Below, piece by piece: positions 6,613 to 58,486 of a DNA stretch of 64,000 bases (the stretch's first letter is position 1; the number at the start of each line of letters is the position of its first letter). The position numbers and the translations under genes were made by a program. A model generated the notes under the pieces. That model was not told the origin of the DNA. It made no database searches and was given only the letters and a program-made list of their open reading frames with translations. This DNA is from Candidatus Nealsonbacteria bacterium (GTDB lineage: Bacteria > Patescibacteriota > Minisyncoccia > Minisyncoccales > PWPS01): positions 2,825 through 66,824 of the forward strand of contig PUMP01000048.1 of NCBI GenBank assembly GCA_003551425.1, read 5' to 3'.

Positions 6613-6623
6613 TTTTTTAAAAC

Positions 6624-6652: not shown

Positions 6653-6671
6653 ATTGAATTTCTGTAAGGCT

Positions 6672-6944: not shown

Positions 6945-7144
6945 AAATCAATTATTTTATTAAAATTAATCGACCTTTATGTTGCCTTATTATAACAACG
7001 TTTCTTATTCTTTTTCAATACTTTTAAAATATCACTTTTTTATTATCATATCAAGCAATTGCATTCATCTTGTAAAGCTCATTGCTTGATAACGTGCTTA
7101 TGTTATGATTATCTAATAATAATTGTCAAAAAATTATAGAGTAA

Positions 7145-9163: not shown

Positions 9164-9164
9164 A

Positions 9165-9365: not shown

Positions 9366-9415
9366 GCTTTACTTTTTAATGATAGTTATTATAATAAAAA
9401 AAGGAGGTGTGAAAA

Positions 9416-9514
9416 ATGAAGTTCTTTGGAATATTGTTTGTCGTGCTCATTATAGTGTGTGGTATAATCTCCATTTTGGGAGCAACAGGGCTCTTGAAGC
9501 CTTTGCTGTTCTAA
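9416..9514 (+). CDS. small hydrophobic peptide (32 aa, MKFFGILFVVLIIVCGIISILGATGLLKPLLF)
   Basis: A consensus SD (AAGGAGGTG) sits 8 nt upstream of the ATG. One predicted TM helix. A hairpin follows. Confidence 0.4.
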   Translation: MKFFGILFVVLIIVCGIISILGATGLLKPLLF

Positions 9515-9712
9515 AGAGAGGGAAGATTCATTCTTCCCTCTTAAGCTTTTCTAAGCACCAAAATGACATTGACTACCAAGGGTTGACCCTTGGTAAATAA
9601 TGGAGTTGTTCTTTTATTTGTTCGGAAAAATGTGCTTTTGAGACTACTTTTCCCAAGGGTCAACCCTTGGGTGTAGCTTGTGAAATGGTTGTTCTCTGTT
9701 AAAATAAAAGTA

Positions 9713-44301: not shown

Positions 44302-44377
44302 ATAACGATATTTTACCACAATAACGAAGAAAGACAAACTTTGAACTTAGGTCCGTTTTGAGCTATACTAATCTTGT

Positions 44378-44953
44378 ATGACAGCCGAAATACAAACTTT
44401 CTTTGCCGCCATGGTGCCTTTCTTGGAATTGAGAGCGGCAATTCCCGTAGCGATATTAGTCTACGGAATGAGCCCTTCTGCCGCTTATTTCTGGGCCGTT
44501 TTGGGGAATATCATTCCGATTTTTATTATCCTAGCTTTCTTGGAGCCGGTTTCTTTATGGCTCTCCCGTAATTTTTCTTTTATGCGGCGTTTCTTTGATT
44601 ATCTGTTTGAGAAAACAAGACGAAAGCATACCGGTAGAGTGGGTAAGTACGGATTTCTTGCCCTCTTCCTGTTTACGGCTATTCCTCTTCCCGTTTCCGG
44701 AGCTTGGACGGCATCGCTTGTTGTTTTTCTTTTCGGGTTACCTTACTTAAAGTCGGTTATTTCCATCATTTCGGGAGTACTTCTTGCCGGAGTTGTCGTA
44801 ACTTTTATCACTCAAGCCGGGATAAGTGTTAAAGACAGTTACGGAGTGCAGGTTATGGGAGGATTTCTTCTCCTTGTTTTATTTATTTATTTTGTTTATT
44901 ATCGAAGGAGGGTTAATTATAAAAAAGATGTCCGAAATAGCGCTTTATCGTAA
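44378..44953 (+). CDS. small membrane protein of the 'putative small multidrug export' family (COG2426-like)
   Basis: PFLELRAAIPVAIL is the hallmark of that family; 4 TM helices. Confidence 0.55.
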   Translation: MTAEIQTFFAAMVPFLELRAAIPVAILVYGMSPSAAYFWAVLGNIIPIFIILAFLEPVSLWLSRNFSFMRRFFDYLFEKTRRKHTGRVGKYGFLALFLFTAIPLPVSGAWTASLVVFLFGLPYLKSVISIISGVLLAGVVVTFITQAGISVKDSYGVQVMGGFLLLVLFIYFVYYRRRVNYKKDVRNSALS

Positions 44954-46058
44954 ATACAGGCCGCAGAAATTTTCCGAAGTAGTAGGGCAGGAGTATGTGG
45001 TAAAAATTCTGCTTAATGCCATCTCCTCCGGAAAGGTTTCTCATGCTTATCTTTTTTGCGGGCCGAGAGGTTGCGGGAAAACTACCGTGGCTCGTCTTTT
45101 AGCTAAAGCGGTAAACTGTGAAAAGAAAGACAACCCCGATCCTTGCAATAAATGTTCTTCTTGTCTTGAAATAAAGGAAGGAAATGCCGTAGATTTAACG
45201 GAGATTGACGCGGCGTCGCACAGGGGAATTGACGAAATAAGAGAGCTTCGGGACGGGATTCGTTTTTCACCCGCGAAGCTTGATTATAAGGTAATTATCT
45301 TGGACGAGGTTCATCAGCTTACCACAGGAGCTTTCAACGCTCTTTTAAAGATGTTAGAAGAGGCGCCGTCTCACGCTATTTTTATTCTCGCCACCACGCA
45401 GCCGCAAAAAGTTATTCCTACCATTATTTCCCGTTGTCAGCGTTTTGATTTTCGCAAAATCACTGTTCCGGAGATAGTGAAAAAATTAAAGAAAATTGCG
45501 AAAAAGGAAGGGTACGAAGCCGAAGACGAAGTACTAAAGCTGATTGCGGTAGCGGCGGGAGGAGCCCTTCGTGACGCGGAAAGCCTTTTGTCACAGATGA
45601 TGTCTTTTACTTTGAAAGGTGGGGTTATAAGGAAGGAGGACGTTAAGGATCTTTTGGGAGTAATGGAGAAAAAAGTAATGAGTGATTTTATAGACTCCCT
45701 TTTGCGTCGAGACTCCGAGGGCGCGATAAAGATTATGGATGAGGTTTTCTCCCACGGTACCGATCCGGAAGACTTTTATCAAAATTTAATACACTACTTA
45801 CGTGAAATGATGGTACTAAAAATTGTCTCCGGAAGGGAAGGGACGTTTTTAGAATCTTTAATGGCCACTTTCACAAAAGAAGAAATTAAAAAAATAGAAG
45901 AGCAAACTCAAAAGATCAACGAAGAAGGAATAAGAAGAATGATTGATGTTTTCCTTCAAGCGGGGGAGAAAATAAAGTATTCTCCCATTCCTCAACTTCC
46001 CCTTGAATTGGCGGTTACGGAGATAGCGGAGGGGTCCGATGTTACGGGAAAGGGTTGA
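44928..46058 (+). CDS. dnaX: DNA polymerase III subunit gamma/tau (short form)
   Basis: YRKYRPQ.F.EVVGQE, Walker A GPRGCGKTT, a Zn module (C..C..C), and SRC (ISRCQRF). Confidence 0.85.
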   Translation: MSEIALYRKYRPQKFSEVVGQEYVVKILLNAISSGKVSHAYLFCGPRGCGKTTVARLLAKAVNCEKKDNPDPCNKCSSCLEIKEGNAVDLTEIDAASHRGIDEIRELRDGIRFSPAKLDYKVIILDEVHQLTTGAFNALLKMLEEAPSHAIFILATTQPQKVIPTIISRCQRFDFRKITVPEIVKKLKKIAKKEGYEAEDEVLKLIAVAAGGALRDAESLLSQMMSFTLKGGVIRKEDVKDLLGVMEKKVMSDFIDSLLRRDSEGAIKIMDEVFSHGTDPEDFYQNLIHYLREMMVLKIVSGREGTFLESLMATFTKEEIKKIEEQTQKINEEGIRRMIDVFLQAGEKIKYSPIPQLPLELAVTEIAEGSDVTGKG

Positions 46059-46096
46059 AGAAAAGGCAAAAATAGATTATTATAGGCGGGAGTTAA

Positions 46097-46169
46097 TGCG
46101 GGATGGTGTAATTGGTAACACGCCACGCTTTGGACGTGGAGTTTCCAGGTTCGAGTCCTGGTCCCGCAG
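46097..46169 (+). tRNA. tRNA-Gln (anticodon UUG)
   Basis: Acceptor TGCGGGA/TCCCGCA, D-stem GTGT/ACAC, anticodon stem CCACG/CGTGG with loop CTTTGGA, T-arm CCAGG-TTCGAGT-CCTGG. Confidence 0.75.
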
Positions 46170-46188
46170 CAAAGGGTAAGAGCGAAAA

Positions 46189-46217
46189 TTCTCGATAGGC
46201 TATCGAGATTTTTTTTA
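46189..46217 (+). terminator. intrinsic terminator after tRNA-Gln
   Basis: CTCGATAggcTATCGAG followed by ATTTTTTTTAT. Confidence 0.6.
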
Positions 46218-46236
46218 TGTGTTATAATGAATAAAT

Positions 46237-47160
46237 ATGAAAAAAATAAAAGACATATTAGACAGTTTTCTAATACAAGCGCAAACTGATAATCTTACAA
46301 CTGGCTCATATCCCAAAGAGTATAATGATTTAAAAATGAAAGTTTCTTTTGGAATGGGGATGCCCGCAAGAGTTCCCTGGGTTGCTTTTATTGTTCCGGA
46401 AATGCAGGTCAGTAAAGGTTTTTATCCTGTTTATTTGTATTATAAGAGCATGAATACTCTTATTCTTGCTTATGGCGTAAGTGAAACATCAGAGTTTGAT
46501 AAAACTTGGCCAGCAGAAATAATGAACTCAACTTCCACCATAGAAGGATTTTTTAATCAAGAAGTTCCCAGATATGGAGATTCTTTTGTTTTTAGAGTTT
46601 ATAAAATTAAAATAGAAAATAGAGAAGTTATTTATTCTTCTGAAGGAAATGAAGATATTTCTAGTCACGATCTCGAATCTGATTTAAATACTATTTTGGA
46701 TTACTACAAGAAAGTTGTTTTAGTTGATGCTAAGGAGAAGAGTTCTGCAATGAGTCAAGGACTATTCTACATGGAGAAACAATTAGAAGATTTTATTATT
46801 CAAAATTGGGAGAATACTGAATTAGGAAAAAAATTTGATTTAATAATTGAAGATGGAGAACTAGTAAGCCAACAGTATAGAACTGATATTGGACAGATAG
46901 ATATATTAGCAAAAGAAAGAGGAAAAGAAGGCTTTGTTGTTATTGAACTAAAGAAAGATCAGACAAGTGATGATACTATAGGACAATTGGCTCGTTATAT
47001 GGGTTGGGTCAAAAGACACAAGAGAGACGAGGGAGTGAAAGGAGTCGTTATTGCTGGACATTATGACAAAAAACTAGACTATGCTCAAGAGATGATGCCA
47101 AATATAGAAGTTTTTCTATATGAGGTAGATTTTAAACTTAAAAAATTTGGGGAAAATTAG
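46237..47160 (+). CDS. MrcB_N (DUF3578)-like N-terminal domain fused to DUF91/NucS-like PD-(D/E)XK nuclease; putative modification-dependent (type IV-like) restriction enzyme
   Basis: The N-terminus (ILDSFL..A.T.NL.TGSYPKEY..L.MKVSFGMG..ARVPWVAFI...SKGFYPVYLYY) matches the McrB N-terminal domain family pattern. The C-terminus (LEDFIIQNWE...IDILAKERGKEGFVVIELKKD...DTIGQLARYMGWV) matches the DUF91/NucS nuclease (D...ELK). Confidence 0.55.
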   Translation: MKKIKDILDSFLIQAQTDNLTTGSYPKEYNDLKMKVSFGMGMPARVPWVAFIVPEMQVSKGFYPVYLYYKSMNTLILAYGVSETSEFDKTWPAEIMNSTSTIEGFFNQEVPRYGDSFVFRVYKIKIENREVIYSSEGNEDISSHDLESDLNTILDYYKKVVLVDAKEKSSAMSQGLFYMEKQLEDFIIQNWENTELGKKFDLIIEDGELVSQQYRTDIGQIDILAKERGKEGFVVIELKKDQTSDDTIGQLARYMGWVKRHKRDEGVKGVVIAGHYDKKLDYAQEMMPNIEVFLYEVDFKLKKFGEN

Positions 47161-47269
47161 CTCTCTTCTAGTCGAAGAACTTGGCTTTTTAAAAATTATT
47201 TATAGCAAATTGCAGCCCTAAGTTTGTCCACTGTGGTCAATATGTTTAAATTCAGAAAACCATAAAGAT

Positions 47270-47806
47270 ATGCCCTATTTTGCAATTTTTATATTGATTA
47301 TTTTTTCTATACCGGCTGTAATCTTGATTTTTACTTTTTTTATATTGATTTCAAATTTTGTTAGAGAAAAAGAGAAAAAAGAAATTTTGCTCCCTTACAG
47401 AAAAAGAAACTCTCTACTATCGTTTCAAGAAAAAAAATTTTATAAAGTAATAGATAAAATAGCAGAAGACAATAATTATTTATTGTTTACAAAGGTGAGA
47501 TTGGAAGATTTATTTTGGATTCCAAAAAACATCTCTTCAAAAGAAAGATTTGGTTTGCGTAATAGAATTAAGTCTCGTCATGTTGATTTTTTGATTTGTA
47601 ATAAGGATAAAATTACTCCAATTTTAGGAATAGAGCTTGACGATTGGAGCCATGCAAGTCGTAAAGCAAAAGAAAAAGACAAATTTATTAATAAAGTTTT
47701 TACTAGCGCAAAACTTCCACTTTTAAGAATTGAAACCCAAAAATTCTACAACCCAGAATTAATTCTTGAAGAAATCAAAAACAAGACGGTAAAAACCAAA
47801 AAATAA
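47270..47806 (+). CDS. DUF2726-domain protein (restriction-endonuclease-like fold) with N-terminal TM
   Basis: EKKFYKVI....NNYLLFTKVRL....HVDFLIC.KD...ILGIELDDWSH....KDKFINKVF..AKLPLLRI matches the DUF2726 pattern. Confidence 0.5.
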   Translation: MPYFAIFILIIFSIPAVILIFTFFILISNFVREKEKKEILLPYRKRNSLLSFQEKKFYKVIDKIAEDNNYLLFTKVRLEDLFWIPKNISSKERFGLRNRIKSRHVDFLICNKDKITPILGIELDDWSHASRKAKEKDKFINKVFTSAKLPLLRIETQKFYNPELILEEIKNKTVKTKK

Positions 47807-47829
47807 AAACAATTAAAAAATAAAAAATT

Positions 47830-48090
47830 ATGGCATTAGTAAATTGTTCTGACTGCGGAAAAGAAATATCAGATAATGCAATAAAATGTGGTAATTGTGG
47901 AAATCAAAATACACCGGGGGAAAAGGGGGAAGAAAAAGAGCTTAAATCGAATATGACGAAACTTGCAGTTCTTTTTTCCATCCCTTTTTCATTAATTCTT
48001 ATTTTTTTGGCCTTACTTACTGGAGATTTTTTAATAATAGTGTTTGCAATTATTTTCGTAATAGGATTAATTATTATTGCAGCAAAATAA
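47830..48090 (+). CDS. zinc-ribbon (CxxC...CxxC) small membrane protein
   Basis: MALVNCSDCGKEISDNAIKCGNCGN followed by a C-terminal TM helix. Confidence 0.5.
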   Translation: MALVNCSDCGKEISDNAIKCGNCGNQNTPGEKGEEKELKSNMTKLAVLFSIPFSLILIFLALLTGDFLIIVFAIIFVIGLIIIAAK

Positions 48091-48220
48091 ACGAAGAAAA
48101 AATTAAAGAAATAAAAAAATAAACGATAATACTCTTTTGGTTGAGGAAATTTTTAAAGTGTTATGGTTCTAGCATCGTTCACTGTAGCCAGCATTCTTGT
48201 GCTAGTGACCGAGACGGGTA

Positions 48221-48255
48221 AGCCCTGAGATTTATTTTCAGGGTTTTTGTTTTAT
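48221..48255 (+). terminator. intrinsic terminator
   Basis: CCCTGAGAtttattTTCAGGG followed by TTTTTGTTTTAT. Confidence 0.6.
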
Positions 48256-48271
48256 GGTAAAATAAAATAAT

Positions 48272-48853
48272 ATGGCAAAAATAATACTGGCGACAACTTC
48301 TCCTTATCGAAAAAAGATATTTGAGACCTTAGGGATTCCTTTTGAAGTAGAGGGGAGCAATGTTGATGAATCGCAACTGGAAAGAAATAATCCGGAAGAA
48401 TTGGTTAAAGAGCTGGCAAAGCTGAAAGCGGAAGCAGTCGCTAGAAACCATAATGATGCCATTGTAATTGGATTTGATTCGGTTGGATACTTTAACGGAA
48501 AATTTCTTGAAAAACCAAAATCAAAAGAAGAGGCGTTTGAGAGACTGCAGTCTCTTTCGGGAGGAAACCATCAGCACTATACTGGAATTTATATAATAAA
48601 CACAAAGTCCGATAAAACGATTTCCGGCGTTGATAAGGCTGATATTTTCATGCGGGATTATTCGGACAAGGAGATAGAAGAATATCTTAAGCAGGGTTCC
48701 GAATTTAACCGCTTTGCGCTCGGGTACGACACAGAAAAGCAGATCAGCGCCTCATTTATTCAAAAGATAGAAGGAAATCATCTTAATTTAAAAGGCATTC
48801 CTTTGTCGGTCTTGGTCGAGATGTTAAGAGAAATCGGATATAAACAACAATAA
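48272..48853 (+). CDS. maf: Maf-family nucleoside triphosphate pyrophosphatase
   Basis: ILATTSPYRK..F..LGIPFEV, VIGFDSV, and the C-terminal GYD pattern of Maf/YhdE. Confidence 0.85.
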   Translation: MAKIILATTSPYRKKIFETLGIPFEVEGSNVDESQLERNNPEELVKELAKLKAEAVARNHNDAIVIGFDSVGYFNGKFLEKPKSKEEAFERLQSLSGGNHQHYTGIYIINTKSDKTISGVDKADIFMRDYSDKEIEEYLKQGSEFNRFALGYDTEKQISASFIQKIEGNHLNLKGIPLSVLVEMLREIGYKQQ

Positions 48854-48887
48854 TATAATTTAGTTGTGAATACTTGTATTGCAAAAA

Positions 48888-48914
48888 AACAGCCGAGGAG
48901 AGCCTCGGTTTTTG
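48888..48914 (+). terminator. intrinsic terminator
   Basis: CCGAGGagagCCTCGG followed by TTTTTG. Confidence 0.55.
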
Positions 48915-48995
48915 CTTAATAAGTAGATTTGGGGTAGAATATAGAAGATAATTAAACATATTTATGGGAGAAATAAAAAATAATAATTTATAAAT

Positions 48996-49454
48996 ATGGA
49001 TGATGAAATTACAATTTTAGAACTTAAAAAAATATTGCAGAAATTTAAAGAAGATAGAAACTGGGGGCAATTTCATGATCCTAAAAATTTAGCTGAAGCC
49101 ATATCAATCGAAGCAGGGGAATTACAAGAAAAATTTCTTTGGAGAACAGTTCCCGGAATTTTGGAAAAGTTGAAAAATGATAAAGAGTATAAAAAAGAGG
49201 TAGAAGATGAGTTCGCAGATATAGTAATATTTTGTTTAAATTTTGCAAATGCTACTGACATAGATATCTCTAAGGTGATAAAAGAAAAAATTAAAAAAAA
49301 CAATAAAAAATATCCCCCGGAAAAGGCAATGGGTGTTTCTGAAAAGTATAATAAACTATTATTGTTTATCAATCTACAAAAAAGGGTTTCAGTGAAGATG
49401 TTATTACTAATAGAATTGAAGAAGCAATTCTTGATATTTTTCAAAAAAAAATAG
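48996..49454 (+). CDS. MazG-like nucleotide pyrophosphohydrolase (all-alpha NTP-PPase)
   Basis: R.WGQFHDPKNLA.AISIEAGEL.E.F.W......E......EVEDEFADIVIF matches the small MazG/YpjD-type core. The metal-binding E..E and E..D residues are present. Confidence 0.6.
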   Translation: MDDEITILELKKILQKFKEDRNWGQFHDPKNLAEAISIEAGELQEKFLWRTVPGILEKLKNDKEYKKEVEDEFADIVIFCLNFANATDIDISKVIKEKIKKNNKKYPPEKAMGVSEKYNKLLLFINLQKRVSVKMLLLIELKKQFLIFFKKK

Positions 49455-49498
49455 GGAGGAGCACCTCTCCTGGTGAAGTTAATGCCTGGAAGAATTCC

Positions 49499-51211
49499 AT
49501 GATGTATATGGAAAACGTACTAAAAGATAATGAAATTCCAGAAGATTGTGGGGTTATGATTGAGTATCAGATACCTCAAACCGCGAAAAGAATAGATTTT
49601 ATATTAACTGGTCAAAATGATAAAAAAATTGATCATGCGGTTATTGTAGAGCTTAAACAATGGGAGTTTGCGGAAATAACAGAGATGGATGGTATTGTTT
49701 CCACTTTTGTAGGCAAAGCTATTCGGCCAGAACCACACCCCTCTTATCAGGCCTGGTCTTATGCTTCACTTTTAAATAATTTTAATGAGGCTGTTTATAG
49801 TGGCAATATTCAACTAAAACCCTGTGCTTATCTTCACAATTATAAAGAGCGAGATGCAATAGTAGATAATTTTTATAGCGAATATATTAAAAAAGCACCC
49901 CTTTTTTTAAGAAATGATTCATTAAAATTACGTTCATTTATTAAGAGATTTGTTAAGTATGGAGATAAGGGAAAAGTTATGTACGAAATTGAGAGTGGGA
50001 GAATAAGACCATCTAAGGGTCTTGCAGATAGTTTAGAAGGTATGTTAAGGGGAAACCAAGAGTTTGTAATGGTTGATGATCAGAAAATAGTTTATGAGAG
50101 GGCGTTACATTTAGCAAAGAAATCGAGTGATAGAAACAAGAAAGTCTTTATTATTGAGGGAGGTCCAGGCACGGGAAAATCTGTGGTAGCGATAAATTTA
50201 TTAGTTGAACTAACAAAACAAAAATTAGTAACACAGTATGTTTCAAAAAATGCAGCGCCCCGAACTGTTTATTGTAATAAGCTTACAGGCAAACACAAAA
50301 AAACGGAAATAGCAAATTTGTTTACGGGATCTGGTAGTTTTGTAAATGCAGAGGAAAATGTTTTTGATACTTTAATAGTAGATGAAGCTCATAGGCTGAA
50401 TGAAAGATCAGGACTATATGCTAATCTCGGAGAAAACCAGATAAAAGAACTGATTAACGCAGCAAAATGTACTGTCTTTTTTATTGACGAGGATCAAAAA
50501 GTGACTTTTAAGGACATCGGAGAAAAAGAAGAGATAATAAAGTGGGCAAAAATGCAAGGCGCCGACATTTACGAAGATAGTTTAGTGTCACAATTTAGGT
50601 GTAATGGATCGGATGGATATTTGGCTTGGCTTGATAATGCCTTACAAATTAGAGAGACTGCAAATAAGACACTTCAAGGTATAAATTTTGATTTTCGTAT
50701 TGTAGACTCCCCAAACAAACTCAGAGATTTGATTTTTGAAAAAAATAAAATAAACAATAAAGCAAGGTTGGTGGCAGGTTATTGCTGGGACTGGATAAGT
50801 AAAAAGGACAAAAACCTGCATGACATAGAATTTCCAGAATATAATTTTAGAATGAAATGGAACTTAGCTACAGAGGGAAGTCTTTGGATTGTATCGCCAA
50901 AATCAATCAATGAAGTTGGTTGTATTCATACTTGTCAAGGATTAGAGCTTGATTATATTGGAGTTATTGTAGGAAAAGATATGATTGTAAGAGATGGAGA
51001 GGTTTTAGTTGATCCAAGAGAGCGGGCTAAGACAGATGCTTCATTAAAAGGTTATAAAAAATTATTAGAAGAAGATGAAAAAGCTACGAAAGAAAAAGTA
51101 AGAAAAATAATCAAAAATACTTATCGAACCTTAATGACACGAGGAATGAAGGGGTGTTATGTCTATTTTGTGGATAAAGAAACAGAAGATTATTTTCGAA
51201 GTAGTGTTTAA
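49499..51211 (+). CDS. DUF2075-type protein: N-terminal PD-(D/E)XK nuclease-like domain + SF1 helicase/ATPase (Schlafen-like)
   Basis: The N-terminus (RIDFILTGQ...AVIVELKQW) is D...ELK. Walker A GGPGTGKS; DEAH-like IVDEAHRL; C-terminal GCIHTCQGLELDYIGVIVG resembles UvrD_C_2/motif VI. It starts 45 bp downstream of the MazG-like gene. Confidence 0.65.
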   Translation: MMYMENVLKDNEIPEDCGVMIEYQIPQTAKRIDFILTGQNDKKIDHAVIVELKQWEFAEITEMDGIVSTFVGKAIRPEPHPSYQAWSYASLLNNFNEAVYSGNIQLKPCAYLHNYKERDAIVDNFYSEYIKKAPLFLRNDSLKLRSFIKRFVKYGDKGKVMYEIESGRIRPSKGLADSLEGMLRGNQEFVMVDDQKIVYERALHLAKKSSDRNKKVFIIEGGPGTGKSVVAINLLVELTKQKLVTQYVSKNAAPRTVYCNKLTGKHKKTEIANLFTGSGSFVNAEENVFDTLIVDEAHRLNERSGLYANLGENQIKELINAAKCTVFFIDEDQKVTFKDIGEKEEIIKWAKMQGADIYEDSLVSQFRCNGSDGYLAWLDNALQIRETANKTLQGINFDFRIVDSPNKLRDLIFEKNKINNKARLVAGYCWDWISKKDKNLHDIEFPEYNFRMKWNLATEGSLWIVSPKSINEVGCIHTCQGLELDYIGVIVGKDMIVRDGEVLVDPRERAKTDASLKGYKKLLEEDEKATKEKVRKIIKNTYRTLMTRGMKGCYVYFVDKETEDYFRSSV

Positions 51212-51273
51212 ATAATTTAATATCAATGATAATGAAGGATATATTATCATATAAGGATATTAATAAATAAAAT

Positions 51274-51402
51274 ATGAAAAAAATAGTTCTATTAGTTATA
51301 TTTTTATTGATAGCGGGAGGTGGTTTTTTCTTCTATAGATCACATAATTACTGCAACAGGATGTATTGCAAAGCCGTAAAAAGCCCTAGAATTAAACTAT
51401 AA
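51274..51402 (+). CDS. possible small membrane peptide (42 aa, [21 protein letters not shown]...)
   Basis: Short ORF with one TM helix; weak ribosome-binding context. Confidence 0.2.
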
Positions 51403-51404
51403 AT

Positions 51405-52034
51405 ATGAACAATAAATTTTACTCTCTACCGGATTTACCCTACGGTTATAAAGATTTAGAGCCCTATATCTCGGAAGAGCAACTAAGTATTCATCATCAA
51501 AAACATCACCAAGCATACGTAAATGGTGCTAACACTGTTTTTGAAAGATTGGAAAAATCTAGGAAAGAGGGGAGTGATCTGGACATGAAAGCGACTCTCA
51601 AAGAGCTGTCCTTTCATGTAAGCGGTCATGTTTTACACTCTCTTTTTTGGCAAAATATGGCTTCTTCAAAAAAAGAAGGTGGAGGAGAGCCCTCCGGTCG
51701 GCTTGGAGAAATAATAAACGATGAATTTGGGAGCTTTGACAGATTCAAGCAAGAATTCACTAAAGCCGCCATCTCTATTGAAGGTTCCGGATGGGTAGCT
51801 TTAACACTGGACAAGGAAAGTGGAAGACCGATGATAATGCAAATTGAAAAGCATAATTTAAATTTGTATCCCGGATTTTCCCTTTTATTGGTATTTGATT
51901 TTTGGGAACACGCTTATTACCTGGATTACAAAAACGAGAAAAATAAGTTTATTGAAGCTTTTTGGCAGATTGTTAATTGGGAGGCCGCTGATAAGAGATT
52001 AAACAGATTCGACGACAAACTTGCACACTCTTAA
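51405..52034 (+). CDS. sodA: Fe/Mn superoxide dismutase
   Basis: LP.L.Y....LEP.IS......HH.KHH..YV N-terminus, and the D....WEHAYY C-terminal metal-binding motif. Confidence 0.85.
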
Positions 52035-52068
52035 TCTTGTAAAAGCCGGAAGAAGAACAAAAACAAAA

Positions 52069-53319
52069 CTAAATTCTCTCCAGTATCTCCTTAATAGTTT
52101 TCATTTTTTTGTTCTCCAGGTCTTCCTCTTTTATATTTTGAGAAACAAAAAGAGCGGTAAGAGGCTTTGTTTCTTTTCTCTTGTATTTACCGGGATAAGT
52201 ACTCTCCAAGTCTTTTTCCAAAATAAAGATCTCTCTTTTCTTTAGTTCTTCTATTTTATTATTCATACCGGTTTTCTTTCCGAAGGAGGGAAACTTTTTA
52301 ATCTTTTGAAGAGAGCTTGAGTTTAAAGCGTCACGATCGAGCATTACCGCGTAAGGAATTTGAAAGGTTTCACAAAGACTGGCGTAAATATCTACAGATC
52401 CCTTTCCACTCGTATATACAACCTTTATGTTCTTATTTTTTCTATAGAAACGGTTGATCATTTCTCGCATAAAGATGCGGTCGGAAACTCCCTCTACAAG
52501 AAGCACTTTGTCTGAGAAAAGCATTCCGGAGTTATCGTCATTGATCTCTTGTATAAAGCGCGTTATATCCACCTTTTTCTTGGAGAAACCGCAGAGAGAA
52601 GTGCTTCCTTCTTCATTTCTGAAAATACGCCATGTCTTGGGGAGGTATTTTGCTTGCACGAAAGTAGGATGATGAGTGGTAAGAAAGATTTGTTTTTTTA
52701 ATTTTTTTTCGTTTAAAATACTAAGAAACTTTTTTATCACGGAAGGATGAAGATCGATGGAAGGTTCGTCTATAAGAATTACCTTATACTGAGGGTGGAA
52801 GATATAAAAAAGGATTACGAAAAGACGCTTGAATCCGGAACCTATTCTTTTTGCCGATCTTTCTTTCTTGTCGGCATATACATTGGAGAGAAAAAGCTTT
52901 TCGCTTATCTCTACGTCCCTGAAGTTTCTTCTCAAAGAAGAGGAAAACTCTTTATAGTCCTGAGGATAATCTTTTTTAAAGCTCTTTATTTTCTTTGCTA
53001 CTTGATAATAATCTTGAGAGCTGTCGATTCTGATAAAATACTTTCTAAAATCTTGATCGGAAGAGGAATATTGACCGTGCCGATAGGAAAGGTTGTGATC
53101 TTTGCCTTTGTGGGTTAAAATGAGTTCAAGATCGGCGTCTTTGTCAGAAAATCTTTCCGGATCGGTATTATCATCGAAAAAAAGATGAATAGCGTCAAGG
53201 ATGTTCGTTTTTCCGGCATTATTGGACCCTACAAGAATTTGAAAGTCAGAGATTTCCCTAATGTGCATGGCATCTTTAATGCTTTTGTAGTGATTTATGG
53301 TTATTTCTTTTATTTTCAT
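52069..53319 (-). CDS. OLD-family (overcoming lysogenization defect) ATPase-Toprim nuclease / fused PARIS(AriAB)-like
   Basis: The N-terminus is IKEITINHYKSI...ILVGSNNAGKTNILDAI (ABC-type Walker A). Walker B is ILIDEPSIDLHP. The C-terminal Toprim has LLVEGVSD and ...MLDRD. Confidence 0.65.
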   Translation of the reverse strand: MKIKEITINHYKSIKDAMHIREISDFQILVGSNNAGKTNILDAIHLFFDDNTDPERFSDKDADLELILTHKGKDHNLSYRHGQYSSSDQDFRKYFIRIDSSQDYYQVAKKIKSFKKDYPQDYKEFSSSLRRNFRDVEISEKLFLSNVYADKKERSAKRIGSGFKRLFVILFYIFHPQYKVILIDEPSIDLHPSVIKKFLSILNEKKLKKQIFLTTHHPTFVQAKYLPKTWRIFRNEEGSTSLCGFSKKKVDITRFIQEINDDNSGMLFSDKVLLVEGVSDRIFMREMINRFYRKNKNIKVVYTSGKGSVDIYASLCETFQIPYAVMLDRDALNSSSLQKIKKFPSFGKKTGMNNKIEELKKREIFILEKDLESTYPGKYKRKETKPLTALFVSQNIKEEDLENKKMKTIKEILERI

Positions 53320-53333
53320 AGAATATTTTAATT

Positions 53334-54119
53334 ATGAATTATTTAAACTTTGCGGTAGAAACCGCGGAAAGAGCAGGGAAAGTGTTATATGATTCTTTTC
53401 GCATAAAAAGCGCAAAGAAAAGAGGAACAAGCAAAGAAGTAAAAAGTACTTTTGACAGGGTGGCGGATGATATTATTATAAGTTCCATAGAAAACAGTTT
53501 TCCCACTTACTCTTATTTTACCGAAGAAACAGGATTTGTAAAAAAAGATGACTCCCTGGTATGGGTTGTTGACCCTCTTGACGGAACCGGTAACTTTGAG
53601 AGTCATAATCCTTTCTTTTCGGTAGCGATATCTTTATGGAAAGAAGGGGAGCCGGTCGTAAGCGTTATTGAAGCTCCCGCACTGCAGGAAAGATTTTTAG
53701 CTGTAAGGAACGAAGGTGCTTTTCTTATTGATTGCAAAAGTAAAAGAAAAAAGCAAGTCAATGTTTCTTTGGTAGAGAAAAGTCAAGACGCTTACGTTGT
53801 TTTTTGTGAAGGAGGTGAAAAAGATAAGAAGCGTATTGTAGAATTTCTTTCTCGTATTTATACGAGCTCTAAAGATCTTAGAAAAATAGGATCTGCATCT
53901 CTTGAGCTCGCTTTCTTGGGAGCGGGGAGAGTAGACGGTTATATTACGTTTCAAATACCGTTCTATGATTTGGCGGCAGGACTTCTTTTTTTACAAGAGG
54001 CGGGAGGGTTGTTTTACAATTTTCAAGGAGAAAAGCTTTCTTTTAAAGACTTTCAAATAAACAAAAGTTTTGACTTTATAGCGGACAATGGAAAGATTGG
54101 GCTTGAAAGACTTGCATAA
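53334..54119 (+). CDS. inositol monophosphatase family protein (SuhB-like)
   Basis: WVVDPLDGTGNF and the IMPase fold motifs. Confidence 0.8.
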   Translation: MNYLNFAVETAERAGKVLYDSFRIKSAKKRGTSKEVKSTFDRVADDIIISSIENSFPTYSYFTEETGFVKKDDSLVWVVDPLDGTGNFESHNPFFSVAISLWKEGEPVVSVIEAPALQERFLAVRNEGAFLIDCKSKRKKQVNVSLVEKSQDAYVVFCEGGEKDKKRIVEFLSRIYTSSKDLRKIGSASLELAFLGAGRVDGYITFQIPFYDLAAGLLFLQEAGGLFYNFQGEKLSFKDFQINKSFDFIADNGKIGLERLA

Positions 54120-54177
54120 ATTGAAAATTTGAATATAATTTTAAAAAAGGTCGGTTTTAAATTTTAAAAAAAATTAT

Positions 54178-54411
54178 ATGGATAACAAGAAAATTCTTAT
54201 TGCGGTTGTATTGGTGTTAGCCGTAGTAGTTCTTGTAGGAGTTGTTTCTTTGGGCCCTGAGGAACCCATTGATCCTGAATTAGAGCTTGACCCCGAATTA
54301 GAGCTTGACCCTGAATTAGAGCTTGACGACCCTGAAGACGTAGAAGAAGAGGAAGAGGAAGAAGAGGAAGAAGAGGAAGAAGAGGAAGAAGAGGAAGAGG
54401 AAGAGCTATAA
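54178..54411 (+). CDS. membrane-anchored acidic repeat protein (PELELD x3 + poly-Glu tail)
   Basis: N-terminal TM (ILIAVVLVLAVVVLVGVV), then 18-bp repeat-encoded hexapeptides, then 30 consecutive Glu. Confidence 0.5.
   Translation: MDNKKILIAVVLVLAVVVLVGVVSLGPEEPIDPELELDPELELDPELELDDPEDVEEEEEEEEEEEEEEEEEEEEEL
54274..54405 (+). repeat. 18-bp tandem repeat x3 (CCTGAATTAGAGCTTGAC) followed by GAA/GAG microsatellite
   Basis: Copies at 54274, 54292 and 54310. The (GAR)n tract runs 54340-54405. Confidence 0.8.
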
Positions 54412-54440
54412 AGGACTAAAATATTAGCTTTATTTTAAGA

Positions 54441-54472
54441 GAACCCCTTTTATTGAGGGGTTTTCTTTTTTC
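54441..54472 (+). terminator. intrinsic terminator
   Basis: AACCCCttttattgAGGGGTT followed by TTCTTTTTTCTT. Confidence 0.55.
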
Positions 54473-54682
54473 TTAAGGAGGTTATAATTGTAATTAATAT
54501 GTTTATTGCTTCACTTATTCTTCTTGTTATCGCTTTTGCTTTCTTTCTGTTGGCCTTTTTTACCGTAAAGTCGCACCTAAAAAAAGAGATTGTTGAGCAT
54601 AATATCTTTCCTCCCTCTGCTTTTCCTTTGTTTTCTTGGATTGGAGTTTTACTTTTTTTAATTTCCCTCATTTTTCTTATTC

Positions 54683-55243
54683 TTGCTTTTTATGTTTAAA
54701 CTAAGAGAAGGAGAAAAAGTTTTACTTATAAGGCAAAGGCACCCTATAATTTTAAAGCTGAAGATCTTTCCTTTCGTTCTTGTTTTTGTTGCCGTGATAT
54801 TGATCGCTCTTGTATTGCCGTTTATTTCCCTTGATGAGCCGGAATGGATGAGTTTAATCTTTGAATATACCGGATCTTTCAATATTCTTTTTTATCTTCT
54901 TTTTACTTCCTTTTTAACACTTTTTCTTTTCTGGCAATGCATCTTTGTTGTTGTGGTAAGTTATTTTTTTGATTGCTGGATAATTACCAACCAACGAACG
55001 ATTCATACGGAATTGCGCGGCCTTTTCAGCCGTTATGTTTCCAGCATATATCATGACCGTATTCAAGATGTAAGCGTTGATGTAAAAGGGATATTGCCAA
55101 CTTATTTAAATTATGGTAATTTGCAGGTGCAAACAGCGGGTAAGTTTCGTGAATTTGTTTTTTACGATATTCCCGATCCTTATAAAGTCAAAACAATATT
55201 AATAGATATTCAACGAAAAGGTCGAATTAAAAATATAAGTTAA
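54683..55243 (+). CDS. bacterial PH-domain (bPH_2/DUF304, YdbS/YdbT-like) membrane protein
   Basis: A TM hairpin is followed by ITNQRTI....G.FSRYVSSI..D.IQDVSV...G.L...LNYGNL.VQTAG. A 66-aa TM ORF at 54499..54699 overlaps its start. Confidence 0.55.
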   Translation: MLFMFKLREGEKVLLIRQRHPIILKLKIFPFVLVFVAVILIALVLPFISLDEPEWMSLIFEYTGSFNILFYLLFTSFLTLFLFWQCIFVVVVSYFFDCWIITNQRTIHTELRGLFSRYVSSIYHDRIQDVSVDVKGILPTYLNYGNLQVQTAGKFREFVFYDIPDPYKVKTILIDIQRKGRIKNIS

Positions 55244-55249
55244 TTTATT

Positions 55250-56026
55250 ATGAACAAAATAATTGTAGGAGTCATAGTGGTTGCCGTTGTTGTTCTTGCC
55301 GGTGTTCTCATTACGGGAATGGAAGCTCCCGAGGTTCCGGATGAAAACGGTGCAGTGGAAGCGGAGATAGTGGCGGAAGAATGGGTGCAAAACAACGCAG
55401 GAACTTTTACTGACAGAGAGGGAGAAGAGCTAGCCCACATCAGCACCAGAGAGATTGAAGAGGACATTTTCGATGTGGAGTTTGAGTTTAGTTCCAGGTT
55501 TTCCGGATACGGAGAACTTGCTGATGACGAAGTAGCCGCGCAAGTAATAACGCCTCATGTAATTGTGGTCAGTGTAGAAGGAGGAGAGGTTGTAGGGGCC
55601 GTTACGGACGAAGTATTTGATGAATACGAAGGAGAAATGATCGATGAAGATGTAGAGGAAAACGATTACGAAACAACAATGGTAGATGTTTATTTTGCCA
55701 TTGTGGAAGACGGTCAAGAAAGATTGACTTCCGTGGAAAGAGAAGTTCTCGTTGAGAACAAAGAAGAGTCCGCTCTCTTGGAGCTGTTAGAGAGACCGGA
55801 AGAGAATGATTACTTTACGGCAATCGCGGAAGGAACAACCCTCAACTCTTTCGTTATTGACGGAGGAGTCGCTTATGCGGATTTTAGCGAGGAACTTGAT
55901 GCTTCCGGAAGCGCAACCGTAACGATGATTCGTGATCAAATTGAAAGCACTCTTTTACAGTTTGATACCATAAATGATGTGGAGATCTCTATTGAAGGAG
56001 AAACGGAAGAAATACTGCAGCCCTAA
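55250..56026 (+). CDS. membrane-anchored acidic protein with C-terminal GerMN-like domain
   Basis: N-terminal TM and an acidic linker. The C-terminus (TLNSFVIDGGVAYADFSEELDASGSATVTMIRDQIESTLLQFDTINDVEISIEG) resembles the GerMN domain. Confidence 0.45.
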   Translation: MNKIIVGVIVVAVVVLAGVLITGMEAPEVPDENGAVEAEIVAEEWVQNNAGTFTDREGEELAHISTREIEEDIFDVEFEFSSRFSGYGELADDEVAAQVITPHVIVVSVEGGEVVGAVTDEVFDEYEGEMIDEDVEENDYETTMVDVYFAIVEDGQERLTSVEREVLVENKEESALLELLERPEENDYFTAIAEGTTLNSFVIDGGVAYADFSEELDASGSATVTMIRDQIESTLLQFDTINDVEISIEGETEEILQP

Positions 56027-56048
56027 ATTCTCAGATAGTTACGTAAAA

Positions 56049-56077
56049 AACGGCGAGAAAGACTCGCCGTTTTTTGT
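56049..56077 (+). terminator. intrinsic terminator
   Basis: CGGCGAGaaagaCTCGCCG followed by TTTTTTG. Confidence 0.65.
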
Positions 56078-56123
56078 ATAAGCATTGTTTTCTGCGGCTC
56101 TATGGGTTATTTTAAAGATAATG

Positions 56124-56981
56124 AGAAAAAATCCGAAAATAGGAGCACATGTTTCCGTTGCGGGAGGAATCGAAAACTCTCCGAAACGTGCTGAAGAAAT
56201 GGGAGCGGAGTGTATGCAAATATTTGCCGGAAGCCCAAGGAGATATGAGGTTTCTATGCCTTCGCAAGAGACAAAGAAGAGCTATAAAGAAGAACTGGAA
56301 AAAAGAAACATATCTCCTGTTTATATACACGCTACTTATCTTTTAAATCTTGCTACAGAGGAGAGCTCAATATACCGGAAATCATTTAAAAGCCTTTTGG
56401 ATACGTTGAATTTCTGTGATGAGATTGACGCAAACGGAGTTATTTATCATCCCGGATCTCCCAAAGGGGGAGACAAGAAAAAAGCGATTAAAAGAGAGAT
56501 TAGAGCGATAAAAGACATAATGAAATTGTTTTGCGGAAAATCCTTTCTTCTTCTGGAAAATACCGCAGGAGAAAAGAAGATAGGAACCACGCCCGATGAG
56601 ATAGGCTATATTTTAGAACAAGTAAACTCGGAGAAAGTAAAGGTTTGTGTCGATACGGCACACTCTTTCCAGTCGGGAAATATTAATAATTTTGATCTTA
56701 AGCAGATAAAAGAGTGGATTGGCCGATGGAAAAAAGAAGTGGGACTGGAGAACATTTTTTTATTTCACATAAACGATTCTCTTACAAAAGGAGGATCGAA
56801 GAACGATAAGCATGCCAATATCGGAGAAGGACATATCGGGAAGTACGGTTTTTTAAACTTAATGAAAGAAGAAATGGTTGCCAATATTCCTTGGATATTG
56901 GAAGTTCCCGGATTTGGCGGAAAAGGGCCCGATAAAAAGAATATAGAAATATTAAAGAGCATTAGAGAAAAAGCGAAGTGA
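56124..56981 (+). CDS. nfo: endonuclease IV (AP endonuclease family 2)
   Basis: IGAHVS.AGG.......A.E.G....QIF...P, HA.YL.NLA, and the metal ligand pattern (H...D...H..D..E). Start moved to the internal Met. Confidence 0.85.
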   Translation, partial: RKNPKIGAHVSVAGGIENSPKRAEEMGAECMQIFAGSPRRYEVSMPSQETKKSYKEELEKRNISPVYIHATYLLNLATEESSIYRKSFKSLLDTLNFCDEIDANGVIYHPGSPKGGDKKKAIKREIRAIKDIMKLFCGKSFLLLENTAGEKKIGTTPDEIGYILEQVNSEKVKVCVDTAHSFQSGNINNFDLKQIKEWIGRWKKEVGLENIFLFHINDSLTKGGSKNDKHANIGEGHIGKYGFLNLMKEEMVANIPWILEVPGFGGKGPDKKNIEILKSIREKAK

Positions 56982-57042
56982 CTTGCTCTTTTAATATATT
57001 AGATGTTACAATAAATAAAGTATTAATTTTAAATTTAATTAT

Positions 57043-57477
57043 ATGAAAAAAGTAGTGGTTGGAGGCACATTTGATTTATTACACAAAGGACATAAAGAAC
57101 TCCTTAAAAAGGCATCATCGCTGGGGAAGTTAAAGGTCGGGCTTTCTTCTGACCGAATGGCAAAAGAGTTTAAGGGGAGAGAAGTGGAGGAGTTTGAAGT
57201 ACGTATGAATAATATTCGTTATTTTTTGAATGAAGCGGAAGTAGAAGAGATTAACGATCCTTTTGGTTTTGCAGTCGAAGAAGACTTTGATTATATAGTT
57301 GTTTCTTCCGAAACGCGTAAACGTGCGGAGGAGATAAATAAAAAGCGAAGTGATGAGGGAAGAAAAGAAATGGATATTGTAGAAATCGATTTTGTCCTTG
57401 CAGAGGATGGAAACCCTATATCTTCTACCAGAATAAGGAATGGTGTGATAGATAAAGAAGGTAATCTTCTTCAATAA
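57043..57477 (+). CDS. cytidylyltransferase-like nucleotidyltransferase (archaeal-type phosphopantetheine adenylyltransferase-like)
   Basis: VVVGGTFDLLHKGH (the HxGH nucleotidyltransferase motif) at the N-terminus; SSTRIR near the C-terminus. Confidence 0.55.
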   Translation: MKKVVVGGTFDLLHKGHKELLKKASSLGKLKVGLSSDRMAKEFKGREVEEFEVRMNNIRYFLNEAEVEEINDPFGFAVEEDFDYIVVSSETRKRAEEINKKRSDEGRKEMDIVEIDFVLAEDGNPISSTRIRNGVIDKEGNLLQ

Positions 57478-57480
57478 AAA

Positions 57481-57807
57481 ATGAAGGGATTTATGGATTT
57501 TTATGAGGTTTTGTCCGTAATAGCAGAAGCTGCCCGTCAAAAAGAAATAGCAGAGATATATTATCCGAAAACAGAGAATACTCCCGAAGGATGGAGAGAG
57601 ATTGAGCCGTATAGCCTCACAACAGACATACCTCCGGATGGAGAGCATCTTATTTACGGAAAAGATCGCTTAAGTCCGGGACATATTCTAAACGCAAAAA
57701 TTCCGGGTATAGAGGAGCCCCGGTCTTTTATAATAGGAAAGATTAAACTTGCGAGAAGAACTTATCGTAAATTTACGCCTCCCAAAGACTGGAAAGTAGA
57801 ATTTTAA
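57481..57807 (+). CDS. hypothetical protein
   Basis: 108-aa ORF in the same operon-like string; no motif recognised. Confidence 0.4.
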   Translation: MKGFMDFYEVLSVIAEAARQKEIAEIYYPKTENTPEGWREIEPYSLTTDIPPDGEHLIYGKDRLSPGHILNAKIPGIEEPRSFIIGKIKLARRTYRKFTPPKDWKVEF

Positions 57808-57808
57808 T

Positions 57809-58486
57809 ATGGATGAGTATATTGAAGAAATAGAAGAAGAGATAGAAGAAGAGAGTTTTTTTAAGTCTTTTCCCGTCAAGGTTTTCTTTGTTGCTTTACT
57901 GATTATTTCTCTTATTTATATCTCAGGAATAAGGGAGTATTTATTTTATCAAAGGACACCGACAAGCACGAAGCTTCAAGCCCCGGAACCTCTTTTTAAG
58001 GCGGAAGAGATAATTGTTCCTGTTTCTGTTTTTGTGGTAAAAGAAGGCCCTTTTCGCTCTGAAAGAAGCAAAGAAGAGACAGAACATATTTTAAGTAACG
58101 GATTTCGCGTTTTTGTTCAAGCCAATATTGACTTTGAAGTTGTTGAATATTCTGCAATCTCTGCGGAAAGCTACAATTTTCTTTCTGATCACAGGAGTTT
58201 TCTTTCCGAAGTGGAAAAGTATGACCCGGATACGATAAATATTTTTTTGGTAGGGCATTTAAAAGGAATTAACGGCATTGCTTTTCCCGGGCTGAGCTCT
58301 CTTGCTGTGGCAGACTACGTTACTTCTCGAGATTATCGCATTCTTGCACATGAGATTGGCCATATTTTGGGTCTAGGACATAGCAGTGATCCTTTTTCCG
58401 TTATGTATCAAGGATCATACGGCGTGAACCTCTCCATGGAAAAAGCGATAAAAGCCAGAGAAAAAGCAAAGAAGTATGAACTTTAA
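57809..58486 (+). CDS. membrane-anchored zinc metalloprotease (metzincin, HExxHxxGxxH)
   Basis: AHEIGHILGLGHSSD zincin motif, a conserved Met-turn candidate (SVMY), and an N-terminal TM. Confidence 0.7.
   Translation: MDEYIEEIEEEIEEESFFKSFPVKVFFVALLIISLIYISGIREYLFYQRTPTSTKLQAPEPLFKAEEIIVPVSVFVVKEGPFRSERSKEETEHILSNGFRVFVQANIDFEVVEYSAISAESYNFLSDHRSFLSEVEKYDPDTINIFLVGHLKGINGIAFPGLSSLAVADYVTSRDYRILAHEIGHILGLGHSSDPFSVMYQGSYGVNLSMEKAIKAREKAKKYEL

Follow-up and report, generated by a model that had tools for sequence, protein, structure and literature searches.

The 64,000-nt window analysed here, a stretch of contig PUMP01000048.1, comes from Candidatus Nealsonbacteria bacterium, a member of the candidate phyla radiation (CPR). 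On its reverse strand lies a gene for a 416-amino acid (aa) protein of the OLD nuclease family, in which an ATP-binding cassette (ABC) ATPase is followed by a Toprim domain. The open reading frame (ORF) of this OLD gene runs from ATG to stop (stop codon 52069-52071), and an identical protein is on record (P0001). The gene is alone on its strand. It is convergent with a superoxide dismutase (SOD) gene across a 34-bp spacer and divergent from a gene of the inositol-monophosphatase family (Inositol_P), and beyond the SOD gene there is an inserted block of defence-like genes with a low GC content at third codon positions (GC3). Comparisons of sequence and modelled structure show that the OLD gene encodes a minimised ABC-ATPase/Toprim nuclease whose catalytic machinery appears to be intact. 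The neighbourhoods of its relatives show that the gene is resident in the chromosome of this CPR lineage and is inherited vertically.

An earlier note on this DNA had described a 416-aa protein with an ABC-type ATPase domain plus a Toprim domain at its C-terminus, and both are confirmed. The motifs quoted there occur at residues 31-38 (GSNNAGKT), 181-186 (ILIDEP) and 273-280 (LLVEGVSD) of the translated ORF. The Pfam families AAA_15 (6e-23) and AAA_21 (8e-22) match the N-terminal two thirds of the protein and OLD-like_TOPRIM (PF20469, 7e-15) matches residues 267-330, all above the curated cut-offs. Among the OLD, GajA and AriA/AriB models that the earlier note named for a profile comparison, the PADLOC model Old is the best match (2e-32). 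It is followed by the retron-type model ATPase-Toprim_I-B, by many GajA models and then by weaker, partial AriA and AriAB matches. No NCBIfam model scores above its cut-off, and retron_eff_Eco8 reaches 86 bits vs a cut-off of 250. The top sequence match in the PDB is 6p74, the class 1 OLD of Thermus scotoductus (TsOLD), with an E-value of 4.5e-12 for the single sequence and 1.2e-26 for the family profile. An AlphaFold2 (AF2) model built on a family alignment of 45 members, which are 37-77% identical to the window protein, is compact and has a mean predicted local distance difference test score (pLDDT) of 89.5 and a predicted template modelling score (pTM) of 0.86. When this model is compared with the PDB by Foldseek, 6p74 ranks first (E 3e-18; query TM-score, TMq, 0.60), followed by GajA and the retron Eco8 effector, and the top matches are all OLDs.

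Residues of the window protein were mapped through HMMER alignments onto the mutational data for TsOLD (PMC7049728). In the P-loop, G31, N33, N34, G36, K37 and T38 are invariant across the 45-member alignment, and the K34A mutation abolishes the ATPase activity of TsOLD (PMC7049728). E185, H191 and P192 of the Walker B and D-loop segment are also invariant, as is T214 of the H-loop; H216 is at least 90% conserved, and the H310A mutation at the matching position again abolishes ATPase activity in TsOLD (PMC7049728). The Q-loop of class 1 OLDs often contains an arginine (PMC7049728), and the nearly invariant R97 at the end of the beta-rich lobe is a candidate equivalent. The linker just upstream of the Toprim domain has five invariant positions, R254, Q257, E258, N260 and N263 (R254-x-x-Q-E-x-N-x-x-N263), and might couple the ATPase to the Toprim domain or contact the substrate. 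Within the metal B site, position 370 varies in the family between D, S, T, A and C. The counterpart of TsOLD R487 may be K378 or the invariant K385, the latter in a C-terminal tail that is modelled as helices 385-395, 398-402 and 404-415. With its ATPase motifs and two-metal Toprim sites all present, the protein is predicted to be catalytically competent. A loss of Toprim catalytic residues, which the earlier note had considered, does not apply because all of them are present on alignment and all save position 370 are invariant. A RecF/RecR-like scaffold role is set aside on the same ground, since the Toprim domain retains every nuclease metal ligand.

The placement of this protein within the OLD family follows the phylogeny of Yang et al. 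2025 (EMBO Rep, PMC12796447), which comprises classes 1-4, a new class 5 (Cran1, from Sulfolobales) and the uncharacterised clades U1-U11. In their Dataset EV1, clade U2 contains sequences from Kerfeldbacteria, Parcubacteria and other Patescibacteria together with Nanoarchaeota, Woesearchaeota and other DPANN archaea; U2 is uncharacterised, and its synteny was outside the scope of their analysis (PMC12796447). Our family profile scores the bacterial U2 sequences, which are cut to 399 aa in the dataset, at 260-354 bits, the DPANN U2 sequences at 184 bits, and those of U3 and U4 at 86-116 bits. These three clades are the EV1 sequences that were compared directly, and classes 1-4 are covered through PADLOC and PDB profiles. 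In an exhaustive HMMER search of 1.84 billion representatives, the top matches P0126, P0130, P0133 and P0136 are the EV1 U2 entries OIP80295, MBI2427004, OGY85351 and MBU0666826, and all non-U2 proteins score 168 bits or less. The U2 scores and the shared top matches imply that the window protein is a member of U2 or nested in it. Judged by these profile scores it belongs to U2, and to its shortest subgroup (396-444 aa). A scan of GTDB species genomes with the family alignment gives, among the matches listed, at least three full-length relatives (31-36% identity) and then generic OLDs. Our literature search found no paper on OLD proteins of CPR bacteria.

As the earlier note had remarked, the protein is unusually short for its family: characterised OLDs have 525-750 aa, and the non-family OLD matches of the exhaustive search have about 500-744 aa. 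This shortness is not a truncation, because more than 100 homologues of 396-444 aa align with the window protein from end to end and the AF2 model is compact and confident. Residue 170 aligns with TsOLD residue 259 and residue 333 with residue 436, so about 89 of the 109-112 residues that are missing relative to TsOLD lie before Walker B. They fall in the beta-lobe, which is shorter than in TsOLD and in the longer U2 relatives, and in the helical dimerisation insert. The dimerisation domain of TsOLD consists of four helices inserted in the ATPase. At this position the model has helices 104-117, 119-132 and 140-152, and longer relatives have extra residues. From the catalytic glutamate to the C-terminus there are 140 aa here vs 148 in TsOLD. 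About 33 representatives in the exhaustive search score at least 219 bits before a sharp drop to 168 bits or less, and their lengths grade from about 417-460 through about 480 to 526-538 aa; the generic OLDs below the drop have 620-660 aa. In an alignment with the longer relatives, segments have been lost step by step behind the Walker A helix and within the beta-lobe and helical insert, while the catalytic motifs stay in register. At 416 aa, and with every catalytic residue, this is about the smallest complete OLD found in our analysis, which makes it an attractive minimal model for an ABC ATPase head that gates a Toprim nuclease.

The evidence that the gene is resident comes from its relatives. 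Homologues with 77, 62, 49 and 47% identity occupy the same slot and are likewise alone on their strand (loci L002, L003, L006 and L009). One flank of this slot consists of Inositol_P or a small gene, a Germane-domain protein, endonuclease IV, a cytidylyltransferase and further genes up to a 1070-aa UvrD-PDDEXK helicase-nuclease. The other flank is a glycogen-metabolism cluster in the relatives, and in the window the low-GC3 block and the SOD gene replace it. Across the four relatives the identities of OLD (77/62/49/47%) are similar to those of the inositol monophosphatase (75/-/41/48%) and the Germane protein (66/54/53/47%). In pairwise comparisons of seven genomes, the OLD identities correlate with those of the Germane protein (r = 0.72) and of a WYL-like gene (r = 0.78). 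The mean identity of OLD is 55% vs 53-59% for its neighbours, and the three groupings of the genomes are the same. With UvrD the correlation is weak (r = 0.36), a result of the contig-end fragments of 134-348 aa among the UvrD sequences (three of seven).

Sampling was also carried out neighbour-first, with the Germane gene as the anchor, against ascertainment bias. In a metagenome scan, five Germane loci were at least 46% identical and had sufficient upstream sequence, and all five have OLD in the slot, as do two further long Germane contigs, both with an OLD of 416-417 aa. Among the annotated homologues, P0068 is labelled 'Patescibacteria group' and the Germane homologue P0313 'Candidatus Pacebacteria'. 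The tally from this side is thus 7/7 informative loci (L091, L093, L094, L099, L102, L109 and L110). Database searches return about 94 OLD clusters vs about 49 full-length Germane clusters at 45% identity or more. No member of this protein's own family was found on the viral contigs of IMG/VR, and the phage genomes searched contain only partial OLD matches at 28% identity. The same slot in every sampled relative argues that OLD belongs to the cell's resident genes and not to the adjacent defence island. The earlier note had named universal conservation among relatives, as of a housekeeping gene, as a sign against its reading, and conservation of this kind is largely seen here: the gene is found at all seven anchor-sampled loci and co-diverges with housekeeping neighbours.

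Table 1. Positions of the OLD gene, of its predicted parts and of neighbouring features in the window, with related loci in other lineages (positions in the named locus)
Feature	Position	Strand	Basis or remark
Complete coding sequence, 416-aa compact OLD-family ATPase-Toprim nuclease	52069..53319	(-)	ORF list, Pfam, AF2, Foldseek
N-terminal beta-rich lobe of ABC ATPase head, residues 1-98	53026..53319	(-)	DSSP of model, alignments
Walker A/P-loop GSNNAGKT, G31-T38	53206..53229	(-)	K37 = TsOLD K34
Reduced helical insert, residues 104-152, three helices	52864..53010	(-)	AF2 model
ABC signature-like RIGSGFKR, residues 158-165	52825..52848	(-)	G160, G162, F163 invariant
Walker B and D-loop VILIDEPSIDLHP	52744..52782	(-)	D184/E185 = TsOLD E276/E277; H191 = TsOLD H283
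H-loop TTHHP	52666..52680	(-)	H216 = TsOLD H310
Clade-specific linker RFIQEINDDN just before Toprim	52531..52560	(-)	shared with U2-clade sequences
Toprim nuclease domain, residues 267-376	52192..52521	(-)	PF20469, alignment to 6p74
Metal A ligands E276, D328, D330			TsOLD E377, D431, D433; invariant
Metal B ligands D280, D370, E372			TsOLD D381, S478, E480; D280 and E372 invariant
C-terminal helical tail, residues 377-416	52072..52191	(-)	K385/P386 invariant; not a class 2-type helical domain
Gap between divergent start codons of OLD and Inositol_P	53320-53333		14 bp
Glutamate-rich 77-aa protein	54178-54411	(+)	
UvrD + C-terminal PDDEXK_1 fusion, 1071 aa	58476-61691	(+)	AddA/PcrA-nuclease type
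tRNA-Gln, anticodon TTG	46097-46170		low-GC3 block starts 67 bp after it
Low-GC3 inserted block	46233-51285		genes 46237-47160, 47270-47806, 47830-48090, 48272-48853, 48996-49454, 49499-51211
16-nt exact direct repeat AAATATGAAAAAAATA	46233-46248 and 51270-51285		brackets low-GC3 block; SOD and OLD outside
Kerfeldbacteria (L008, L103), 434-aa homologue	8001-9305 in each		57% identical between genomes; neighbours 54-73%
Komeilibacteria, U2 gene			after Ham1-type ITPase gene
Parcubacteria, U2 gene			before glyoxalase and HhH-GPD glycosylase
Nanoarchaeota (L107, L108), stretch with 526-aa U2 OLD	4354-9709		inside grpE - dnaK - OLD - dnaJ; JBDRHD010000029.1, JAHJHF010000160.1

Members of U2 in other lineages occur in different surroundings. 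The Kerfeldbacteria gene order is SecDF, sigma factor, DUF8128, TrwB, one further gene (x), OLD, mnmA, alaS, infA and ribosomal proteins, and in L103 the OLD gene is on the same strand as mnmA and ends 3 bp before it. The trio of sigma factor, DUF8128 and TrwB-like ATPase upstream of OLD is itself conserved between L008 and L103, and the Kerfeldbacteria sequence CP181398.1 is a contig of 1.31 Mb. On nine contigs of Nanoarchaeota, 60 bp separate dnaK from the start of the OLD gene, and the dnaJ start follows the OLD stop by 1 bp. A chaperone operon is an unexpected place for a supposed defence gene. None of the contexts examined in these other lineages is a defence island, and no partner gene recurs among them.

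The low-GC3 block next to the SOD gene encodes a fusion of McrB_N with a NucS-like PD-(D/E)XK domain (PADLOC PDC-S02, 5e-46), a DUF2726 protein, a zinc-ribbon membrane protein, Maf, a MazG-like protein and a Schlafen-group-3/DUF2075 helicase that has weak PADLOC matches to PDC-S41, Nhi and AbiO. Five of these genes have a GC3 of 0.20-0.27 vs 0.39 for OLD, which is like that of the genes for cysteinyl-tRNA synthetase (CysRS), DnaX, Germane, endonuclease IV (EndoIV), Maf and SOD (0.36-0.43); Maf, inside the block, has a native-like GC3 of 0.38. The proteins of the block were found in none of the related loci, all of which have OLD. At its position the relatives have the glycogen-metabolism cluster (GT5, GH57, glycogen synthase and GDE_C), a cluster that occurs nowhere in the window. 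The block showed no integrase. The tRNA-Gln gene is the only Rfam match in 44000-58000, and a repeat of its 3' end, looked for as an att mark, was not found. L002 shares the order dnaX then tRNA-Gln, and in L006 a tRNA-Gln likewise lies on the far side of the glycogen cluster. The 16-nt direct repeat could be an insertion scar or an att-like duplication; it is A-rich and may be due to chance. The earlier note had placed the OLD gene in convergent orientation to the rest of an island: the convergence stands, with the SOD gene as its partner, and the membership of the island is contradicted by GC3 and synteny.

Three further observations concern individual neighbours. The helicase gene at the end of the block encodes 570 aa from its first ATG vs 617 aa in the call on an identical Logan contig (L001, 3162-5015). 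The longer call shares 4 bp with the end of the MazG-like gene; the start is uncertain, and the two genes probably form one operon. The 14-bp spacing between the divergent start codons of OLD and Inositol_P is kept in L002. So short a gap implies either that the promoters lie inside each other's coding regions or that the transcripts are leaderless. Consensus scans for promoters and terminators around the OLD gene gave about as many matches as shuffled sequence (7 vs 4.3 +/- 2.2 expected and 2 vs 1.6, respectively). The 77-aa protein further along this flank contains a hydrophobic N-terminal segment, three PELELD repeats and, at the C-terminus, about 27 glutamates in a row, and the relatives have small ORFs (75-98 aa) at its position. 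Its extreme acidity fits a halophilic source, and sample names (SL_3KL_010_SED, PWNV01, PWKU01) suggest that the DNA comes from sediments of soda lakes.

A mechanism for the OLD protein can be proposed by analogy with TsOLD, GajA and Cran1. Two subunits would associate through the reduced helical insert, and their heads would engage in an ATP-dependent manner through Walker A K37, Walker B D184/E185, G160-x-G-F, the D-loop H191 and the H-loop H216. The nucleotide state of the heads would then license the Toprim site, with metal A and metal B, to nick or cleave nucleic acid. Among the characterised proteins, TsOLD and P2 Old degrade DNA, Vc OLD and Cran1 nick it, and P2 Old has been reported to cleave tRNA.

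We favour, with middling confidence, a cellular role in nucleic-acid maintenance or stress, in which the protein would serve as an ATP-gated nickase on the cell's own chromosome or on RNA. The OLD gene may then be a domesticated former defence gene. The model for this reading is Cran1, which was recognised by its lineage restriction and vertical inheritance and proved to be an essential, cell-cycle regulated nickase without a defensive function (PMC12796447). The same evolutionary signature is present here and therefore favours a cellular role. In Salmonella the old gene has a conditional essentiality that appears under temperature stress, and this recalls the dnaK-operon setting of the Nanoarchaeota U2 genes. 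A bolder proposal, which we put forward tentatively and consider somewhat doubtful, extends the reading to U2 as a whole. The entire clade would be non-immune and would provide a lineage-specific housekeeping or stress ATP-gated nickase to ultra-small host-dependent prokaryotes (CPR and DPANN). Such proteins might act on the chromosome (relaxation, replication/segregation or repair) or on RNA, and they would be co-expressed with dnaK/dnaJ in DPANN and with mnmA-alaS in Kerfeldbacteria.

Several points weigh against a cellular role. Every bacterial OLD that has been characterised experimentally is defensive. Escherichia coli YbjD, a class 1 OLD that is fixed in the chromosome and lies in convergent orientation, is not essential, and its induced expression produces anti-phage phenotypes; vertical inheritance therefore does not prove that the role is housekeeping. 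The exhaustive search shows a small clade that is far from universal among CPR bacteria. OLD is missing within 10 kb of Germane at two loci where the Germane homologue is distant (36-38% identity). In the window the gene borders a variable segment with acquired defence-like genes, and in other lineages the contexts differ and no partner recurs, so no specific pathway is indicated. The homologues on which the gating model rests also disagree with one another, since Cran1 is monomeric and GajA acts without ATP hydrolysis.

Several of these points agree with the principal alternative, a stand-alone anti-phage OLD of class 1 type that is fixed in the lineage, like YbjD/OldB, Vc OLD and P2 Old. In this model the ATPase senses an infection cue and the Toprim domain nicks DNA or cleaves tRNA so that the infection is aborted. 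We regard it as a serious possibility, if on balance not a probable one. The best matches in sequence and structure are defence OLDs (PADLOC Old, 6p74, GajA and Eco8), a single-gene context is what defines class 1, and anti-phage phenotypes are compatible with a conserved chromosomal OLD, as YbjD demonstrates. The variable segment with defence-like genes next to the OLD gene fits as well, and Yang et al. read the mixture of bacteria and archaea in U2 as consistent with the horizontal spread that is typical of defence genes (PMC12796447). However, the gene shows no turnover: it keeps its slot in all seven anchor-sampled relatives, even where identity is only about 46%, and its evolution is as slow as that of its core neighbours. 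The family is never on IMG/VR viral contigs, and elsewhere its genes are among or co-oriented with housekeeping genes (mnmA-alaS and dnaK-dnaJ) and not in defence islands. The retention of a dispensable gene over such divergence would be unusual in CPR genomes of about 1 Mb.

The remaining alternatives invoke particular defence systems or the neighbouring island. The earlier note had left a choice between a class 1 OLD and a fused AriA-AriB protein (PARIS), whose ATPase would detect anti-restriction proteins of phages and set free a Toprim tRNase. The OLD assignment stands, of class 1 type by its single-gene context, and the PARIS assignment, for want of an AriB-type Toprim, is almost certainly wrong. 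PADLOC does return AriA (8e-23) and AriAB (7e-20), and there is a generic ABC-ATPase similarity to AriA structures (E 5e-7). These AriA matches are weaker than Old and are confined to residues 1-120 and 143-221 within the ATPase. AriA structures reach 32 bits, over profile positions 112-225 only, vs 97 for TsOLD. The Toprim domain belongs to PF20469 with no DUF4435 or AriB-type Pfam match at E<=0.01, no PARIS structure is among the top 50 Foldseek matches, and the fused AriAB profile has 694 positions. A dispersed Gabija-like pair with the UvrD-family helicase 5.2 kb away is very improbable, in agreement with the earlier note, which had excluded Gabija because no UvrD gene is adjacent. That 1071-aa protein matches many GajB models (best 2.7e-80), and a UvrD gene lies within about 5-8 kb of OLD in all syntenic relatives, where it closes the syntenic block. 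But its fusion to PDDEXK_1 implies that the GajB matches reflect generic UvrD similarity; such matches could lead automated annotation to call Gabija wrongly where an OLD gene is only a few kb away. The class 2 definition places the helicase gene in tandem and immediately downstream, whereas here eight unrelated genes separate it from OLD and the two are on opposite strands. No UvrD gene is near the family members in Kerfeldbacteria, Komeilibacteria, Parcubacteria and Nanoarchaeota, and the Toprim region is class 1-sized and lacks the class 2 helical domain. It is just as improbable that the OLD gene was acquired horizontally as cargo of the adjacent defence island (46237-51211). It lies only 858 bp from the last island gene, with SOD alone between them. 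Its GC3, its presence in relatives that lack the island genes and have the glycogen-metabolism cluster in their place, and a direct repeat that brackets the block and excludes SOD and OLD all speak against this origin.

OLD nucleases are usually treated and automatically annotated as anti-phage proteins, and the only reported exception is archaeal Cran1 (2025). The bacterial clade described here shows a Cran1-type signature: it is lineage-restricted and strictly syntenic, co-diverges with core genes and does not occur on viral contigs. U2 OLDs are outside defence islands in all five lineage contexts examined, and in related lineages they lie within housekeeping or chaperone operons. If the bolder proposal for the whole clade is correct, this would be the first bacterial counterpart of Cran1, and cells would have domesticated OLD nucleases for functions of their own on at least two independent occasions. 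If the role is cellular, counts of defence systems in CPR and DPANN genomes are inflated, and OLD domestication would be a recurrent theme. The case also warns against inferring membership of a defence island from adjacency alone.

With its U2 relatives the window protein has in common the motif R-x-x-Q-E-[LI]-N-x-[DE]-[NS]-x-E-[ML]-[FL]-F-[AS]-D-x-V-L-L-V-E-G and a [ML]-x-D-x-D motif. The longer relatives (P0126 to P0144) have 459-538 aa and contain segments that the window protein lacks. The class 1 examples that were compared are TsOLD, P2 Old, Vibrio cholerae Vc OLD and E. coli YbjD/OldB. Class 1 is defined by context as a single isolated gene (Schiltz 2019, Dot 2023), and the OLD gene has such a context, since no partner recurs across the five lineage contexts. 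It is thus class 1-type by genomic context, yet by its profile placement it is outside the class 1 clade, and U2 is separate from that clade in the tree of Yang et al. (PMC12796447). TsOLD is the best PDB match by sequence (97 bits) and by fold, and all of its ATPase and metal A/B residues are matched. In the model the Toprim domain is class 1-sized and appears to lack both the Insert-3 helix and the C-terminal helical domain of class 2; its helix alpha3 (352-361) leads straight into beta4 (364-366). In contrast to class 1 OLDs, the window protein is about 110-170 aa shorter, is predicted to have three helices instead of four at the position of the TsOLD dimerisation insert, and has a canonical aspartate in Walker B where class 1 has a glutamate. 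Its signature-like G-x-G-F motif is invariant, whereas the class 1 signature is degenerate (PMC7049728). Its gene is vertically inherited and off phage and viral contigs, whereas P2 Old is phage-borne.

GajA (class 2) and the retron Eco8 effector (class 3) share the two-domain fold (Foldseek E 2e-15 to 5e-15), with profile scores of 61 and 52 bits, respectively. They are 160-330 aa longer than the window protein, which lacks the class 2 Toprim helical domain. A retron effector was considered as a candidate and rejected: there is no reverse transcriptase among the neighbours, Rfam finds only tRNA-Gln in the region searched, and retron_eff_Eco8 is below its cut-off. The ABC ATPase of PARIS (class 4) belongs to the same broad OLD/SMC-like branch. 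PARIS consists of two genes or a fusion of about 694 aa with an AriB Toprim, and the window protein is one fused 416-aa chain with an OLD-type PF20469 Toprim. Cran1 (class 5, clade U11), which is compared here by its description and as a functional analogy, is similarly lineage-confined, vertically inherited and outside defence islands, and has an intact ATPase and a two-metal Toprim. It differs in its clade and in its host, Sulfolobales archaea rather than a bacterium. Cran1 is a monomer of about 55 kDa with an alpha-helical insertion in its Toprim domain, and the model of the window protein appears to lack such an insertion. Essentiality and a cell-cycle role are established for Cran1 only. 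The vertical inheritance and non-defence context of the OLD gene therefore support the suggestion that it may work like Cran1, and not that it is a member of class 5.

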